Source: an uncultured Chloroflexia bacterium (lineage in GTDB: Bacteria > Chloroflexota > Dehalococcoidia > DSTF01 > JALHUB01). From it: DNA of 64,000 nucleotides. This document shows, piece by piece, positions 3,490 through 46,054 of the stretch (position 1 is the stretch's first letter; the number at the start of each line of letters is the position of its first letter). The position numbers were made by a program, and so were the translations under genes. The stretch lies in assembly GCA_963842845.1 (NCBI GenBank), contig CAWJHZ010000019.1, positions 64,995 to 128,994 of the forward strand, in the 5' to 3' direction. The notes under the pieces are model-generated. The model saw only the letters and a list, made by a program, of their open reading frames with translations, was not told the origin of the DNA and did not search any database.

Positions 3490-5172
<1,683 letters not shown>

Positions 5173-40873: not shown

Positions 40874-41125
40874 CTAGCCTTCGCGCTCCTCTTCGACGAT
40901 CTCGGCGCCCTTCCCCTCGTAGACGAAGCCGGCCCGCTCCGCGATTAGCGTCAGGAGCTGGGCGGACGCTCCGCGCGGTTCGTACTGCCCCGTCTCCCAC
41001 TCGCTTATCGTCTGCTGGCGGGTGCCCATCTCCTCGGCCATCTGCGTCTGTGTCAGGCCCAGGTGGTCTCGCAGCCCGTGAATGCGGCCGGCGTTCCAAA
41101 CGGCCTTTCGCTTCCTCTTCGCCAT
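40874..41125 (-). CDS. XRE-family helix-turn-helix protein (YiaG/MqsA-HTH-like, antitoxin-type)
   Basis: ATG at 41125 gives MAKRKRKAVWNAGRIHGLRDHLGLTQTQMAEEMGTRQQTISEWETGQYEPRGASAQLLTLIAE... The longer track ORF (TTG at 41161) would translate through a 22-bp perfect palindrome. Confidence 0.75.
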   Translation of the reverse strand: MAKRKRKAVWNAGRIHGLRDHLGLTQTQMAEEMGTRQQTISEWETGQYEPRGASAQLLTLIAERAGFVYEGKGAEIVEEEREG

Positions 41126-41132
41126 GCGGTCA

Positions 41133-41154
41133 TCGTACACGCTAGCGTGTACGA
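41133..41154. promoter_or_regulatory. 22-bp perfect palindrome, candidate operator
   Basis: TCGTACACGCT/AGCGTGTACGA is perfectly self-complementary. It lies 8 nt upstream of the ATG of the XRE-HTH gene (minus strand). Confidence 0.5.
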
Positions 41155-41182
41155 AAGTCAATAGCCCGTTGCGAAACTCGGG

Positions 41183-41425
41183 CTAGTCGGCGACAGCCAC
41201 AGTAAGTTCTTCTGTGCCCTCGGTCACTTGCAGCCCAGATCGATGCAGTTCCTTTTCGAGGGAGCCCTGCCGCTCCAGCGGTTTCAGTAGAAGCAGAACC
41301 GTTCTTTCCAGATTCCGGCGCGCCATGTCTGGGGAAGCCCCATGTGCCGTCAGCCCCAACTGAGGGCTGCGTGCCGCAAACCCGTTCTTAATCCGATACA
41401 CGTCGTGTTTGAGTACGACTAGCAT
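41183..41425 (-). CDS. HicB-like (UPF0150) antitoxin-fold protein
   Basis: ATG at 41425 preceded by GGAGG gives MLVVLKHDVYRIKNGFAARSPQLGLTAHGASPDMARRNLERTVLLLLKPLERQG... This fits the HicB N-terminal-domain pattern (x-G-F-x-A-x-x-P-x-L-G-x-x-x-x-G-x-S-x-x-x-A). No hicA was found nearby. Confidence 0.45.
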   Translation of the reverse strand: MLVVLKHDVYRIKNGFAARSPQLGLTAHGASPDMARRNLERTVLLLLKPLERQGSLEKELHRSGLQVTEGTEELTVAVAD

Positions 41426-41519
41426 CTCTGTCCTCCAAATCGTCGATTTTCTATTCACTTTAGGCAACCGACGGACGGACTGCAAATAACGTACCCAGAA
41501 AATAAGGCGTCGCTACCCC

Positions 41520-41580: not shown

Positions 41581-42306
41581 ATGGTCGCAGTCGGGCAGGA
41601 GAACAACCGGCCGTATCCACCCCCTTCAAACGTAGTGAGCGTGCTCCAGCGGCTGAGGTCGCGCAACTTACCCGAGCGCATAGACGCTGAGTATCTACGG
41701 GATGCCAGCATTCCTGAGGGTACGATTGGGCGTACGTTATTCGCCCTCCGCTTTCTCGGTATCATCTCAGAAGAGGGCGAACCGACTCAGGCTCTTCAAT
41801 CGATTCACACGAGCACCGACGAAGAGTATCGGGCAATCCTAGGTGGATTGGTGCGGGAGGCATACAAAGAAGTCTTCAACGTGCTCGACCCAGCGGAAGA
41901 CTCCCAGGATCGTATCATCAACGTTTTTCGGCGATACACACCCGCCTCTCAGCGCAACCGCATGGCCGTGTTCTTCTTGGGGATGTGTCGTGAAGCCGCC
42001 ATCGCGACCCTGGATGTGCCACGGCAGCGCGCGATGGTAGGCGGGAGACCGGGGACGCGACCGTCACCGGCTAGAGCAACTCGCGCACCGGTGGTCGCAC
42101 CGCCCAAGCCAAGGTACTCGTCTGACGTAGCGCCAGCGCTTGAGGGTCTGATCAAGAGTCTACCAATCCCTGGTACACCCCTGAGTCTGGAGCGCCGTCA
42201 GCAGTGGCTTAAGATGGCAGAGGCTACTCTGGCCTTCGTCTATCCAGACGAAACGGATGTGCCCTTATCAGCACCGGTGGACGAAGAAACGGAGGAGGTG
42301 GACTAG
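41581..42306 (+). CDS. DUF5343-like hypothetical protein
   Basis: 241-aa ORF. The N-terminal part (YPPPSNVVSVLQRLRSRNLPERIDAEYLRDASIPEGTIGRTLFALRFLGIISEEGEPT) resembles my recollection of the DUF5343 family. The C-terminal half is Pro/Ala-rich with an acidic tail. Confidence 0.45.
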   Translation: MVAVGQENNRPYPPPSNVVSVLQRLRSRNLPERIDAEYLRDASIPEGTIGRTLFALRFLGIISEEGEPTQALQSIHTSTDEEYRAILGGLVREAYKEVFNVLDPAEDSQDRIINVFRRYTPASQRNRMAVFFLGMCREAAIATLDVPRQRAMVGGRPGTRPSPARATRAPVVAPPKPRYSSDVAPALEGLIKSLPIPGTPLSLERRQQWLKMAEATLAFVYPDETDVPLSAPVDEETEEVD

Positions 42307-42513: not shown

Positions 42514-43692
42514 ATGCACGCATCCCATTATAACACGGGTCGGCAAGCCCGTGAACGGCGACCATTCGAGGACTTAGGAAGACTGTTTGACGCGCTGGAC
42601 GATGCGGCACTCCTTGAGCGTCTAGTAGAGACACGTTGGACAGGGCGACCGGGCTATCCCGTCAAGATAATGTGGCGAACCTTGATCGCATCCTTCGCGC
42701 TCGGGATTGTGCACGACACTGACCTAGTTCGAGCGCTGCACGCTAACTCACAGCTCGCAGCCATCTGTGGGATTAACCAGCGGCGGAGCATACCGAGCAA
42801 GTTCGCCTACTGTCGCTTCCGTCGCAAGCTTGTCGCCTTCAACGGGCTAGTGGCTGACGTGCTCGCTCGCTGTGTTGAGCGGCTGCGGGAGAACCTGCCG
42901 GAACTTGGCCAGACCCTCGCAGTCGATTCGACAGATATCAAAGCGTGGGCCAACTGCGGACACCATGATACCGATCCAGATGCTGGCACCGGCGCGAAGA
43001 AGAAGTCTGGCGGTACGCACTACTGGTACGGCTACAAGGTCCACACGGTTGTGGACGCGGACGCCGAGTTACCGGTGTGGTTCACGGTTACAGCAGCCAA
43101 CACTTACGATGGCTCGATGCTCCCGCCCGTATTAGAGGAGGCTCAGGCACAATACGGTTGGCTGAAGCCGAGGTATGTGACTGCGGACAAGGGCTACAAC
43201 GCTCGGGCTTGCTTTGACTTCGTGGGCGAGACAATGAAGGCAATCCCCGTGATTGACGTTCAAGCGCGTCAGGCTAAGAAAAGGGAAGGCCGACCATGCG
43301 AAGCGAAGCCGATAGTGACATCGACTGGCCTTCATTGGGAGTGCAATCGCCTTCCCTACGATCCGGTTTGCCCGCGCTTCGGCAAATGCCCACTCCTACC
43401 TATGTTCGCGGACGGGGAACTCAACAAGAGCATCGCTGGTCGCTACTTCGAACGGCACAGTCCCTTCCCTTACGGCTCGTGCCAGTGGAAGGCCATCTAC
43501 AATAAGCGAGTGTCAGTGGAAAGGGTGTTCAGTAGACTGAAAGGCTACCGGAAGTTGGATGCAATCAGGACGCGAGGCTTGCTCAAGGTGCGGCTACATG
43601 TTGCTCTCAGTATGTTGGCAATGGTTGGGCTAGCTCTCGCCAATATGACGGGAGGGTACGCAATGGGGAAGCAGTGTCTCGAAGTCGCATAA
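42514..43692 (+). mobile_element. DDE transposase gene of an IS5/IS1182-like insertion sequence (element ends not defined)
   Basis: 392-aa ORF with an InsH-type N-terminal domain (GRPGYPVKIMWRTLIASFALGI...CGI...FAYCRFRRKL). The DDE_Tnp_1-type catalytic region has LAVDSTDIKAW, YGYKVHTVVDADAELPV, YVTADKGYN and YNKRVSVERVFSRLKG. I could not find convincing terminal inverted repeats. Confidence 0.85.
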
Positions 43693-43870
43693 TCCTACGT
43701 TGGCCCCGTGGACTTTCGACTGGAAACGTAGTAGGATTCTAGGCGGAGAAAAGAATAGAAGCCGCTCTGGCAAGCGGCTCCTGTAGTTCCAAGGGTGTAG
43801 TCCTTTACTGGTTCCTCGCCGTAAGGATACGCCCTTGTTGGCGTTGTGTCAACAGGCGAGGAGGCAGAAT

Positions 43871-44599
43871 ATGGGGACGCTCTCTGACACACAGATACGC
43901 CGCTTAGTCAAATCGGGCGAGCTGGTCATCGAGCCATTTGACGATAGTTTGGTTCAGCCCGCAAGTTATGATCTCCGGCTTGGCGGGAAAATCCTTGCGA
44001 GCCCCCTTGGTGTGGACATTCTGGGAGCAACCATTGAATTGAATGAGAAGACGCCGAGCTATCGTGTGCAGCCTGGGCAAATGGTCGCAATCATCTCGGC
44101 AGAAGTGCTCGGACTTCCATTGGATGTATGCGGCAGATTCGGAATCCGATCAGAATTCGCACGTCGTGGGCTCGATCCTTTTGGCGGGCCGCAACTTGAT
44201 CCGGGATTCAGGGGCCGCCTCACCCTCTCTCTCGTTAATGTCGGACCGGAGCCCGTCACACTCACCCGAGGAATGCCAATGCTCAGCGTCGAGTTCAACA
44301 GGCTGGAAGAACCGGCGGAGAGGGGATATCAAGGCCAATACCAAGGGCAGGAGGATTTCCCGCCGGATCAATACGAGTTTATCCTCTCAGCGCACACGAC
44401 GAGTCTTGCCGAGATACCATCTCTGCGGCTAGAAGTAGCGCGATTGAGCATACTGGTGGAGGAATTGGACGAGAAGCTGCCCGACCCAGACGAGGGCTTA
44501 GAACTGAGGCCCGAAGCTGAGGATCGGCTCCGCCGTTCGCTACAGAAGCCTCGGGAGTCGTTCCTGTCAGCTGATATCATCCGTAAGAAGGTAGGTTGA
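43871..44599 (+). CDS. dCTP deaminase/dUTPase-fold (Dcd-like) protein with about 80-aa C-terminal extension; catalytic Glu apparently replaced by Ser
   Basis: ATG at 43871 behind GAGGAGG gives MGTLSDTQIRRLVKSGELVIEPF...ASYDLRLG...GRFGIRSEFARRGL...LDPGFRGRLTLSLVNVG. This aligns by eye with the E. coli Dcd motifs GRSSLARLG and IDPGWSGCIVLEFYN. The C-terminal part (LAEIPSLRLEVARLSILVEELDEKLPDPDEGLELRPEAEDRLRRSLQKPRESFLSADIIRKKVG) is not part of the Dcd fold. The stop overlaps the next gene start (TTGA). Confidence 0.75.
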   Translation: MGTLSDTQIRRLVKSGELVIEPFDDSLVQPASYDLRLGGKILASPLGVDILGATIELNEKTPSYRVQPGQMVAIISAEVLGLPLDVCGRFGIRSEFARRGLDPFGGPQLDPGFRGRLTLSLVNVGPEPVTLTRGMPMLSVEFNRLEEPAERGYQGQYQGQEDFPPDQYEFILSAHTTSLAEIPSLRLEVARLSILVEELDEKLPDPDEGLELRPEAEDRLRRSLQKPRESFLSADIIRKKVG

Positions 44600-44862
44600 C
44601 TGCGCCTCCCATGCCGCTCCTGTACGACGACGATGCACTCTCAGATGTTCCCGCACAAGACCTCCAGCGCATCGTCGAAAAGGCAGAGTGGCTCTGGGTA
44701 TATCGGCAAGCCGTGACTCATCACCCCTTGCGTCATAATCTTAGCGGTTTCTACAAACGTCGTGCAGGCAACTATCGGATCATTTATACCTATGACACAG
44801 AACTTGACGAACTGGTGATCCGCTTGGTCGGCACTCGTGACGATGTATACAAACCCCGCTGA
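44596..44862 (+). CDS. RelE/ParE-superfamily toxin-like protein
   Basis: 88-aa ORF. DDALSDVPAQDLQRIVEKAEWL...LRHNLSGFYKRRAGNYRIIYTYDTELDELVIRLVGTRDDVY follows the RelE/StbE pattern (L.G....R.R.G.YR.IY......-..V.....G.R..VY). TTG at 44596 overlaps the TGA of the upstream gene; ATG at 44611 is an alternative start. Confidence 0.75.
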   Translation: MTAPPMPLLYDDDALSDVPAQDLQRIVEKAEWLWVYRQAVTHHPLRHNLSGFYKRRAGNYRIIYTYDTELDELVIRLVGTRDDVYKPR

Positions 44863-44893: not shown

Positions 44894-44931
44894 AGTTTCG
44901 CAACAGGCTATCAATAGCTCGTTGCGAAACT
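44894..44931. repeat. 38-nt imperfect palindrome upstream of the RelA/SpoT-domain gene; one half is repeated at 41158-41182
   Basis: AGTTTCGCAAC-AG-GCTAT-CA-ATAGC-TC-GTTGCGAAACT has 11-bp outer arms and 5-bp inner arms and ends 5 nt before ATG 44936. TCAATAGCTCGTTGCGAAACTACGG (44911-44935) matches TCAATAGCCCGTTGCGAAACTCGGG (41158-41182) at 22 of 25 positions. Confidence 0.6.
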
Positions 44932-44935
44932 ACGG

Positions 44936-46054
44936 ATGTTGCAGATGGTACTTGAGCTAGAGAGAACGGGTGAGGTAGCCTATCAAACTGATATGGGGTG
45001 GACGAAACGTGCGTACAGCCGCGAGCAAGTGAACGCCGCCGGAGCCGCGCTTGTTCACTCTGCAACCACCGCAGATGAGATGGAACACGCGCTGCTTGTT
45101 ATCAACAATTGGCGTGCCTCTCACGCCTTCCCGCTGAACACTCTTCAAATGAACTTGAGAGGAAAAACCAAGCAAGTGGACAAACGCGGCTTGGTTGCCC
45201 AACGCATCAAAAGACTGCCCGCTATCCAACTCAAGCTCAGTCTCATGCCAGACTTGCGGCTGACCCAGATGCAGGACATCGGCGGGTGCCGAGCTGTGGT
45301 GGGCTCAATTTCTGCCGTCAATCGTCTTCGTCGCTTGTATGACCTGACTGAATTCAAACACGAACGCGCTCATTTTGATGACTACATCGGTACCCCCCGA
45401 GACTCGGGCTACAGGGGGATTCACTTCGTCTGGCGCTACTACAGTGACAAAAACGAATCCTACAATGACCTGAAGATAGAAATGCAGTTGCGCACGAGGC
45501 TTCAGCACGCTTGGGCTACAGCCGTGGAGACAGTCGGCACGTTCAAGCAGCAGTCATTGAAATCGGGATTAGGCGACGAACAATGGCTAAGGTTTTTTGC
45601 GCTGATGGGCAGCGCTATTGCTCGTCGAGAGAGAAGTCCTCTTGTGTCAGCTACCCCGACCGAGGAGGCTGAACTGATTCGCGAGTTGAAGTACTACGTC
45701 GAGGAACTTGACGTGATTGGCCACCTAACAGGATACCGGCTCGTACTGGACAACGTATTATTGGGCCGTTTCAAGGGCCTTCGCTACTTCTTGCTTGACT
45801 TGAAACCTCGCGAGGGCCGACTACTGGTAACGCCGTATCTGAAGAAGGAAGTTGAAGCCGCGTCGAACCAGTATTTAGATGTTGAGCGACAAGCGAGGCT
45901 GCCATTCGCCGAACAGCGTGACGCAGTGCTCGTTTCCGTCGATTCGCTAAGAGAGTTGCGCGCTGCTTACCCCAATTACTTTGCGGACACACAGCGATTC
46001 GTGGAGGAAGTGACGCGTGCTATCCAAGGTCCAACTACCGGAGCGAGGGCCTAG
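44936..46054 (+). CDS. RelA/SpoT-domain protein (small alarmone synthetase / toxSAS-like) with about 150-aa C-terminal domain
   Basis: 372-aa ORF with synthetase motifs RIKRLPAIQLKL, MQDIGGCRAVV, DYIGTPRDSGYRGIHFV and IEMQLRTRLQHAWATAVE. The C-terminal region has no motif I recognise. The start is uncertain (ATG at 44936, 44945 or 44993). Confidence 0.8.
   Translation: MLQMVLELERTGEVAYQTDMGWTKRAYSREQVNAAGAALVHSATTADEMEHALLVINNWRASHAFPLNTLQMNLRGKTKQVDKRGLVAQRIKRLPAIQLKLSLMPDLRLTQMQDIGGCRAVVGSISAVNRLRRLYDLTEFKHERAHFDDYIGTPRDSGYRGIHFVWRYYSDKNESYNDLKIEMQLRTRLQHAWATAVETVGTFKQQSLKSGLGDEQWLRFFALMGSAIARRERSPLVSATPTEEAELIRELKYYVEELDVIGHLTGYRLVLDNVLLGRFKGLRYFLLDLKPREGRLLVTPYLKKEVEAASNQYLDVERQARLPFAEQRDAVLVSVDSLRELRAAYPNYFADTQRFVEEVTRAIQGPTTGARA

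Follow-up and report, generated by a model that had tools for sequence, protein, structure and literature searches.

A putative RelBE-like toxin–antitoxin operon in which the antitoxin carries a dCTP deaminase/dUTPase-fold domain lacking the deaminase glutamate

The operon considered here lies on the forward strand of a 64,000-nucleotide stretch of DNA from an uncultured Chloroflexia bacterium (hereafter the window, whose first letter is position 1), and comprises two adjacent, co-oriented genes. The upstream gene (43871..44599, +), the ATG of which has GGAGG upstream, encodes a putative antitoxin of 242 aa, comprising a Dcd/dUTPase-fold head devoid of the deaminase Glu, a predicted coiled coil, and a C-terminal tail. 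The downstream gene (44611..44862, +) encodes a RelE-family toxin of 83 aa from ATG 44611, or of 88 aa if the open reading frame 44596-44862 (+) is read from the alternative TTG at 44596. An earlier note, made from the DNA letters and their translations, had placed the toxin start in a TTGA stop/start overlap of the two genes; the overlap is present in the DNA, but as a toxin start it is disfavoured by 38 unique homolog pairs and by the database gene call (83 aa), which support ATG 44611. This ATG stands 11 nt past the antitoxin stop, the typical gap in homologs being 7-11 nt, and is probably the real start. Scans for promoters and terminators near the operon gave no signal beyond that expected by chance, and the DNA upstream of the antitoxin gene has no operator-like palindrome. 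An IS element adjoins the operon in the window.

The head of the upstream protein (residues 1-160; 43871..44350, +) matches Pfam DCD (PF22769; E = 1.3e-22, residues 4-144) and exceeds the cutoff of TIGR02274 dCTP_deam (111 bits against 92.8), and the AF2 model of the whole protein (pLDDT 89.6) finds M. tuberculosis DCD-DUT (1.2e-15), followed by archaeal dUTPases, as its best Foldseek matches. The Dcd fold proposed earlier for the N-terminal ~165 aa is thus confirmed by both profile and structure comparison (Foldseek at 1e-15). In the head, a Dcd/dUTPase β-barrel carries the nucleotide-site motifs RSxxARxG and DPG(W/F), and E. coli Dcd and the DCD-DUT enzymes of M. tuberculosis and M. jannaschii share this fold and these motifs; however, the catalytic Glu of Dcd (E138 in E. 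coli, according to the PDB titles of the E138A/D mutants; ITLELSN in M. tuberculosis) is absent from the head family. An alignment by phmmer pairs LTLSLVN of the antitoxin with ITLELSN of the M. tuberculosis enzyme, which places Ser120 (codon TCT, 44228-44230, +) opposite the Glu. Among 120 homologs, this position is occupied by Asn (99), Ser (14), Thr (6), or Ala (1), and never by Glu or Asp, and the proposed Glu-to-Ser substitution therefore withstands a profile check (0/120 homologs with Glu). The homolog set comprises >120 full-length proteins of 60-82% identity, all from MAGs or metagenomes. Because the catalytic Glu is absent across the whole family, the antitoxin protein cannot, judging by its sequence, deaminate by the known mechanism. 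In the same 120 homologs there is little or no variation at D34, S94, R98, Q108, D110, Y153, G155, and Q158; Y153, G155, and Q158, which are invariant in all 120 sequences, belong to a C-terminal lid motif (residues 147-164, EPAERGYQGQYQGQEDFP; 44309..44362, +) that aligns with ...NPYRGNYQGS of Pyrococcus furiosus P45 and with the arm by which Dcd and dUTPases cover the nucleotide.

P45 (PDB 9ln0/9ln3) is also the best sequence match to the head, with at most 38% identity in Foldseek, and the T. pacificus dUTPase (8y1w) is 35% identical to it. Both archaeal proteins likewise lack the deaminase Glu, with Met in its place (LTLMLYN), and the head has the motifs IRSxxARxG, DPG, and Y-G-x-YQG in common with the archaeal Dcd-family dUTPases. 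Foldseek and PDB titles name 9ln0 and 8y1w as dUTPases, and a P. furiosus protein annotated as a dCTP deaminase is an efficient dUTPase without deaminase activity (PMC5122711). Since the closest solved relatives without the Glu are named as dUTPases, the loss of this residue removes deamination, but not necessarily catalysis; hence, of the earlier description of a pseudo-enzyme that binds nucleotides without deaminating them, the Glu loss stands, whereas "pseudo-enzyme" is not justified in view of these relatives. The head is likely to bind a pyrimidine dNTP, and by analogy with the Glu-less archaeal dUTPases there is a little less than an even chance that it hydrolyses one. Unlike the putative antitoxin, the archaeal dUTPases are stand-alone enzymes of ~155 aa without stalk, tail, or toxin partner, and the loop before DPG reads FGGxQ in the antitoxin family as against SFAWV in P45. 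We rejected a role as a housekeeping Dcd or Dut, because only 43 loci are found among 185,579 species genomes, and in varying contexts.

The downstream protein reaches 20.8 bits with Pfam ParE_toxin (E = 5.7e-4; cutoff 23) and 17.3 bits with RelE_StbE (cutoff 27.9). Its best PDB sequence match is RelE2 Rv2866 of M. tuberculosis (5.6e-5), which a PDB profile search recovers at 4.8e-6, and the latter search matches only RelE, YoeB, HigB, and RelK structures. The AF2 model (pLDDT 89) has a RelE-type α/β fold with Foldseek TM scores of 0.77-0.79 to RelE and lower scores to ParE. The pairs K49/K54, R56/R61, R76/R81, and Y80/Y87 (toxin/E. coli RelE) were obtained by hhalign in a weak alignment (E = 9e-4) to an approximate E. 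coli sequence, and none of these toxin residues varies among 18 sequences; the catalytic residues of E. coli RelE are K52/K54, R61, R81, and Y87. Within the RelE/ParE superfamily the protein is divergent, and it is predicted to act as a ribosome-dependent mRNA endonuclease. The earlier label "RelE/ParE-like" holds as to the RelE superfamily but not as to ParE: profile search and Foldseek indicate a RelE/YoeB-like protein, and the identity of a ParE gyrase poison was rejected because the profile matches are of the RelE/YoeB type and Foldseek ranks RelE above ParE. The arrangement of the operon is likewise that of RelBE and YefM-YoeB systems, such as RelBE2 of M. tuberculosis (Rv2865-Rv2866, PDB 3g5o), in which the antitoxin comes first and a RelE-fold toxin follows a few nucleotides downstream; Rv2866 of this system is the best match to the present toxin in both sequence and structure.

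The adjacent, co-oriented pairing is conserved across genomes in varied contexts. Each close homolog with the tail is followed, after 0-15 nt, by the RelE-like gene, whatever its unrelated surroundings, the gap being mostly 7-11 nt and the flanking genes differing between loci. In a genome scan based on the Dcd-like protein, the toxin lies directly downstream in 11/11 tail-bearing homologs and is absent from 6/6 tail-less or decayed ones, and the pairing noted at the present locus is thus upheld by the survey of homolog neighbourhoods. A metagenome scan based on the toxin (toxin at least 45% identical, upstream DNA visible) finds a Dcd-like gene upstream at nearly every locus, the exception being L077, a tail-only deletion variant. 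At three loci (L006, L087, and L088) the toxin is frameshifted or interrupted beside an intact antitoxin, and no intact toxin beside a broken tail was found among the loci with visible upstream DNA; decay of the toxin first is typical of toxin-antitoxin modules.

Beyond the head, AF2 predicts helices at residues 165-172, 178-202, 214-224, and 234-241. The longest (residues 178-202, SLAEIPSLRLEVARLSILVEELDEK; 44402..44476, +) is a predicted coiled coil, and the stalk contains a nearly invariant SLAEIPxLR across homologs; the stalk region is common to relatives that carry a transmembrane (TM) helix, are paired with a PIN toxin, or are fused to MazE. The predicted toxin-neutralising tail (residues 203-242, LPDPDEGLELRPEAEDRLRRSLQKPRESFLSADIIRKKVG; 44477..44596, +) is delineated by its co-occurrence with the toxin and by reuse of its motif (LPDPDEGLELRPE...RKK, ~40 aa), which is also borne by a protein with a MazE/AbrB domain and by small proteins that stand alone. 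A phmmer search with the tail only yields 44 representatives, including proteins of 57-95 aa, some of which are fragments at contig ends; P0144 is a fusion of a MazE/AbrB domain with the tail (Pfam 3.5e-8), and L086 joins an RHH-like N-terminus to the same tail beside a toxin of 43% identity. The isolated tail matches no Pfam family and no curated antitoxin family, and stand-alone tail-bearing relatives match the RelB-like NF048017 of NCBIfam below threshold. Furthermore, P0183, a paralog with the same head and stalk, has a different tail and precedes a PIN toxin; recurrence of this pairing was sought, but P0183 is a singleton. In other relatives the head and stalk are joined to a TM helix. 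Three different internal deletions have removed the Dcd domain while residues 1 to ~13, the stalk, and the tail are kept, and an intact toxin accompanies L077, the sole one whose context is visible. The head is dispensable for keeping an intact toxin gene and, because it has been lost recurrently, would not be needed for neutralisation.

The tail most probably contacts the toxin directly, and it would bind and neutralise the toxin as the C-termini of RelB and YefM do; its assignment as the neutralising element, first made from its resemblance to antitoxin C-termini, now draws on the conserved pairing, the tracking of tail and toxin, the presence of such tails on antitoxins of canonical type, and the natural tail-only derivatives. 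The same observations bear on whether the genes form a toxin-antitoxin pair at all. It is extremely unlikely that the small protein, itself non-toxic, serves a dUTPase-like enzyme as an accessory or regulatory subunit: this would suit the sub-threshold family matches of the toxin, but it is opposed by the RelE fold, the invariance of catalytic-type residues (in a weak alignment, E = 9e-4), a tail common to a MazE-type antitoxin architecture, decay that strikes the toxin first, and a tail of different identity where a PIN toxin is the partner.

Taken as a whole, the operon is probably a type II RelBE-like toxin-antitoxin system with a nucleotide-binding-fold antitoxin, the tail of which would neutralise the toxin, and the reading of the upstream protein as a putative antitoxin is well supported by the comparative evidence. 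RelBE antitoxins have a helical C-terminal tail, as here, whereas the N-terminus of RelBE and YefM antitoxins is an RHH, Phd/YefM, or AbrB DNA-binding dimer and that of the present protein is a 160-aa Dcd/dUTPase-fold domain followed by a coiled coil. The head would thus stand where ordinary antitoxins have their DNA-binding domain. No DNA-binding domain was found in the antitoxin by a Pfam scan, which detects DCD only, and autoregulation, usual in type II systems, is therefore not accounted for. Relatives with the same tail do bear a MazE/AbrB or RHH-like domain. In contrast to RelBE, the assembly is probably trimeric and without an operator-binding domain; to judge from the trimers of Dcd and dUTPase, the head may form a homotrimer that presents three tails.

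The head might serve only as a stable trimerisation scaffold in place of a DNA-binding or dimerisation domain, its ligand being irrelevant, and the tail-only and MazE- or RHH-like-fused versions, according to which neutralisation would need no head, fit such a role; nevertheless, we regard it as quite unlikely, as eight ligand-site residues are kept in 120 sequences of 60-80% overall identity while the formerly catalytic position drifts among Asn, Ser, Thr, and Ala. Conservation of the site may instead reflect an active dUTPase-type cargo enzyme, with the tail and RelE as an addiction device that stabilises the gene or its element and with no sensing involved. This is unlikely, although the nearest Glu-less solved relatives are named dUTPases in PDB titles and the P. 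furiosus protein is an efficient one (PMC5122711), the nucleotide-site residues are invariant or nearly so, and the distribution is patchy and mobile-like, with varied contexts and the adjoining IS element in the window. Against it, the head has been lost by deletion at least three times from loci that retained the toxin-antitoxin part, and this head and stalk are elsewhere attached to a TM helix or a PIN-type tail, a pattern that suits an input module better than a cargo enzyme; the base-contacting loop FGGxQxDPG is also unlike that of both Dcd and P45.

In the RelBE-like reading that we favour, a mechanism may be proposed in which the lid (residues 147-164), running straight into the stalk, would let its nucleotide occupancy modulate the grip of the tail on the toxin, and RelE would be set free when the dUTP/dCTP-type pool changes. 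That lid occupancy modulates the hold of the tail, so that a pool change releases RelE, is possible but doubtful; given that the head would not be needed for neutralisation, the sensing role draws on ligand-site conservation and on reuse with other outputs only. It is a more speculative and rather doubtful extension that the Glu-less head and coiled coil form a portable input module, either nucleotide-sensing or a hydrolysing timer, gating a RelE toxin and a PIN toxin through different tails and, in prophage-borne relatives, a membrane helix; if true, the family would be a class, previously unrecognised, of abortive-infection or toxin-antitoxin switches that respond to dNTP pools. The Panacea (DUF4065) domain of the NetFlax network (PMC10440598), a promiscuous antitoxin domain that does not bind DNA, is similarly one N-terminal module combined with various toxin-specific elements, although its fold is different and the partners here are a RelE-type tail, a PIN-type tail (single case), and a TM helix; the terms "deaminase", "dUTP", "dCTP", and "Dcd" do not occur in the main text of that paper.

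A further role for the head would be that of a guard or decoy, mimicking host Dcd or dUTPase so that a phage protein which binds or inhibits it frees the toxin. Phage dUTPase acts as a signalling protein on the SaPI Stl repressor, its dUTPase-fold trimer serving as a regulatory switch and not in a purely metabolic role, and such cases of dUTPase-fold proteins as protein-protein signalling partners favour the idea, although the partner there is non-homologous, there is no toxin, and the action is in trans. The TM-helix relatives occur in prophages and beside defence-like genes. However, neither the Dcd-like protein and the toxin nor the TM-helix relatives match any model of PADLOC (PADLOC-DB v2), and most loci lie among housekeeping genes, not in defence islands; a guard or decoy is very unlikely. 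A scan of viral contigs found a single close relative, which is decayed, and two TM-helix relatives that are distant, and the RelE-paired family is therefore not typically phage-borne. The dCTP deaminases of nucleotide-depletion defence and AvcD likewise employ a pyrimidine-nucleotide enzyme fold in conflict systems but are reportedly catalytically active effectors of another architecture, whereas the effector here is RelE and the Dcd-like part stands on the antitoxin side.

Full-text literature searches returned no description of a dCTP deaminase or dUTPase paired with an antitoxin or RelE, and a Dcd/dUTPase-fold antitoxin with a RelE toxin is, as first suspected, apparently undescribed. The unvalidated defence domains predicted by DefensePredictor include, in this respect, no more than "a dUTPase". 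The natural variants of the family (tail-only, tail-less, PIN-paired, and TM-helix) provide a ready set of control constructs, and many proteins annotated as "dCTP deaminase" are flagged as unable to be deaminases. The family bears on the question of how chromosomal toxin-antitoxin modules are triggered, since to our knowledge most antitoxins have no more than a degradable tail and a domain that binds DNA. The putative antitoxin described here bears a well-conserved small-molecule site of the dCTP/dUTP superfamily, linked via a predicted ligand-responsive lid to a tail that would hold the toxin. Even without sensing, it would add a new domain to antitoxin architectures, and the hypothesis offered is that pyrimidine dNTP status, which is perturbed by phages and replication stress, may control a RelE nuclease.

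The predicted antitoxin is encoded by an ATG-initiated ORF of 242 aa on the forward strand (43871-44599), with GGAGG preceding the ATG. Residues 4-144 match the Pfam DCD profile (PF22769, E=1.3e-22), and the protein scores above the cutoff of NCBIfam TIGR02274 (dCTP_deam; 111 bits, cutoff 92.8). An AlphaFold2 model based on an alignment of 120 homologs (mean pLDDT 89.6) comprises a Dcd/dUTPase β fold at residues 1-160, hereafter the head, followed by a short helix (165-172), a long helix (178-202; the stalk), a loop (203-213), and two short helices (214-224 and 234-241), the loop and last helices constituting the tail. Every PDB structure that Foldseek returned for this model is a dCTP deaminase, a bifunctional DCD-DUT enzyme, or a dUTPase, the top match being Mycobacterium tuberculosis (Mtb) DCD-DUT (1.2e-15), and the Dcd fold assigned by eye in the earlier note is thereby confirmed. 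More than 120 full-length homologs (241-245 aa, 60-82% identity) were found, and family members are annotated as "dCTP deaminase" or hypothetical protein by NCBI and JGI. The SLAEIPxLR segment of the stalk is internally duplicated in the homologs P0010 and P0013 (258 aa) and P0190 (300 aa).

For the predicted toxin, an 88-aa ORF from a TTG (44596-44862) overlaps the antitoxin stop codon as TTGA. The operon and its close coupling stand, whereas the exact overlap is probably not real: the public gene call on the same sequence is an 83-aa protein beginning MPLLYDDD at the ATG at 44611, all toxin homologs begin at the equivalent Met, and the gap from antitoxin stop to toxin ATG is mostly 7-11 nt among 38 unique pairs (from -1 to 15 overall, two outliers apart) and 11 nt in the window. 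The toxin is a divergent member of the RelE superfamily. Its matches to Pfam ParE_toxin and NCBIfam RelE_StbE are both under cutoff; the family profile matches RelE2 (Rv2866, 4.8e-6), YoeB, RelE, archaeal RelE, HigB, and RelK in the PDB, with ParE absent from these matches; and Foldseek ranks RelE structures best for the AlphaFold2 model (pLDDT 89; TM 0.77-0.79), followed by YafQ, with ParE lower. Of the "RelE/ParE-like" designation, only the former half is therefore retained. The invariant K49, R56, R76, and Y80 align with K54, R61, R81, and Y87 of E. coli RelE, although in a weak alignment.

In the neighbourhood survey of homologs, a small toxin-like gene lies directly 3′ of the Dcd-like gene on long contigs, and the flanks of homologous loci are unrelated (gyrB/MFS/TrmO; hemD/ALAD; sulfatase genes); a constant pair amid unrelated flanks is what marks a mobile two-gene unit. 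Scanning 185,579 species genomes, sampled without reference to the toxin, with the Dcd-like protein yielded 43 loci, mostly in Chloroflexota/Dehalococcoidia MAGs. A RelE-like gene follows 11/11 homologs that keep the tail and 0/6 tail-less homologs, i.e., L018-L020 (ending near residue 203), L022 (residue 176), L023 (different C-terminus), and the decayed L021; tail-less L018-L020 and tail-bearing L015-L017 are similarly close to the window antitoxin (57-59% and 55-56% identity, respectively). From the toxin side, where the toxin reached 45% identity or more and the DNA upstream was visible, a Dcd-like gene nearly always preceded it, the exception being the head-deletion variant L077. The operon is thus conserved. 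The rival view that the two genes do not form a toxin-antitoxin system has to be weighed against the pattern of decay: the toxin is frameshifted in L006 (about 4740-4992) and L087 (694-947) and interrupted in L088 (1006-3159) by a ~1.7-kb insertion, each time with the antitoxin intact, and an intact toxin beside a broken tail was not seen among the loci examined, which is the pattern predicted by a real toxin-antitoxin pair.

Upstream of the module in the window, a DDE transposase gene (DDE_Tnp_1 and DUF772; 42514-43692, forward) ends 178 nt before the antitoxin start, with a hairpin (43757-43782) between the two genes. A 372-aa RelA/SpoT-domain protein is encoded 74 nt downstream of the toxin (44936-46054, forward); it aligns over nearly its full length with PDC-S33, a single-gene candidate in PADLOC (E=8.5e-116), and an inverted repeat of 18 nt, almost perfect (AGTTTCGCAACAGGCTAT/ATAGCTCGTTGCGAAACT, 44894-44931), directly precedes its gene start. 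Further upstream are a DUF5343 gene (41581-42306, forward; weak PADLOC PDC-M34A match) and, on the reverse strand, an HTH_3/MqsA-like 95-aa ORF (40874-41161) preceded by a 100-aa ORF with no assigned family (41183-41485); these two ORFs may be a second small pair of toxin-antitoxin type. With the IS element and PDC-S33, these genes give the region the look of a small islet of accessory or defence genes adjoining groES/groEL. When neighbourhoods were compared, none of the transposase, RelA/SpoT-domain, and DUF5343 neighbours recurred at homologous loci, the RelA/SpoT-domain gene being unlinked to the module there, and these neighbours are therefore not part of the module.

A phmmer search with residues 166-242 alone against 1.84 billion representatives matched 44 proteins, and the tail motif, LPDPDEGLELRPE-x3-RL-x2-SL-x-P-x3-LLS-x2-E-x-RKKL, recurs in several settings. 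It ends Dcd-like proteins, lies on short proteins of 57-95 aa (some being contig-end fragments), and is fused in P0144 to an antitoxin domain of the MazE/AbrB family (Pfam 3.5e-8) and elsewhere to VRR-NUC and to several N-termini without an assigned family. In P0164 (183 aa), a small antitoxin-like unit bearing the tail occurs twice in tandem. At L086, a protein of ~86 aa with a ribbon-helix-helix-like N-terminus (E=0.1 only against Pfam RHH_1) and the same tail is encoded 5′ of a toxin of 43% identity, whose ORF is without a canonical start codon; more distant toxins are partnered by Phd/YefM or RHH antitoxins. In the small proteins P0140 (from L077), P0147, and P0150, the first 12-15 Dcd-like residues run directly into the stalk and tail, each protein with a junction of its own, and the downstream toxin of L077 is intact; the head has thus been lost repeatedly with the tail retained, and is dispensable for keeping an intact toxin. 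Furthermore, tandem paralogs occur at L013 (MAG Chloroflexota JADFPD010000073.1): P0183 (1266-2105) has the same head and stalk with a different tail (...LLGGWPDDDNFEEFL...), followed by a PIN-domain (VapC-like) gene (about 2110-2530, Pfam 4.3e-12), and P0184, directly downstream, has the RelE-type tail followed by a RelE-like gene. Toxin identity is matched by tail identity in these paralogs; a search for a second PIN-paired P0183-like case found none, so that P0183 is so far a singleton. The tail, likened in the earlier note to an antitoxin C-terminus, thus behaves as one, tracking toxin presence, being shared with a MazE/AbrB fusion, persisting in head deletions, and being swapped with the PIN partner. 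A toxin-antitoxin core built on this modular tail is considered likely.

At the catalytic Glu site, Ser120 (TCT, 44228-44230) occupies the position in the phmmer alignment (R-L-T-L-S-L-V-N against H-I-T-L-E-L-S-N of Mtb DCD-DUT), and the 120 full-length homologs have N (99), S (14), T (6), or A (1), with E or D in 0/120; the replacement and its register had been read correctly. By the known mechanism, the family cannot deaminate. The ligand site is kept, D34, S94, R98, Q108, D110, Y153, G155, and Q158 being invariant or nearly so, and nucleotide binding by the head is predicted with good confidence; this invariance argues against the head being a mere scaffold. Loss of the Glu does not make the head a "pseudo-enzyme", as had been proposed, because the best PDB sequence matches (9ln0/9ln3 and 8y1w; 78 bits, 35-38% identity in Foldseek) have Met at this position (LTLMLYN, LTLMLFN) and are titled "thermostable enzyme dUTPase P45" and "Thermococcus pacificus dUTPase complexed with dUMP", respectively, and the P. 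furiosus protein that bears a dCTP deaminase annotation is reported to act efficiently as a dUTPase and to have no deaminase activity (PMC5122711). By analogy, dUTPase-type pyrophosphatase activity is plausible, and catalysis is considered about as likely as not. In rival readings, considered unlikely, the head would be a cargo dUTPase stabilised by an addiction module, or a decoy for phage proteins targeting Dcd or Dut. The preferred base is uncertain because the loop before DPG, FGGxQ, is unlike those of both Dcd and P45.

In the proposed toxin-antitoxin mechanism, the tail would wrap the RelE-like toxin in the manner of RelB and YefM tails. The head would be a trimer, as is usual for Dcd and dUTPase proteins, with the stalk as a trimeric coiled coil, giving a 3:3 antitoxin:toxin complex. 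The head would bind, and possibly hydrolyse, a dUTP/dCTP-like nucleotide, and closure of a lid (147-164) over it might signal through helix 165-172 and the stalk to alter the grip of the tail on the toxin; such ligand-gated release is putative and rather unlikely.

Distant relatives (30-40% identity; L024-L046, L103, and L104) were found in Rhodobacteraceae, Ruegeria, Defluviicoccus, a Methanosarcinales MAG, and two viral contigs (IMG/VR). Their head is also Glu-less (S, A, or Q), the FGGPQIDPG loop is shared, and the coiled coil is present; the C-terminus is a transmembrane helix, there is no toxin, and PADLOC gave no match for them. Some are multi-copy (5-7 identical copies per MAG), including a 1.83-kb unit, also encoding an HExxH protein, present seven times in one Ruegeria MAG and a unit of at least 4.5 kb with at least 5 copies in a Rhodobacteraceae MAG, with Mu-like portal and head-morphogenesis genes judged by eye. 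At L023 (2113-3024, MAG CAZNSX010000020.1), head and stalk continue into a different C-terminal region of ~130 aa that matches nothing in Pfam; no toxin gene adjoins it, and it may be a further output type. In the portions of the literature open to full-text search, including the 2025 survey of the RelE/ParE superfamily and the paper on the NetFlax network, no antitoxin with a Dcd or dUTPase fold was found described, and the pairing is apparently undescribed, as the earlier note had supposed; DefensePredictor lists only "a dUTPase", among unvalidated predicted defence domains. The pair is classed as a RelBE-like system of type II whose antitoxin architecture is new, not as a new category, and, being found with a RelE tail, a PIN tail, or a transmembrane helix, its head and stalk behave as a module joined to alternative outputs.
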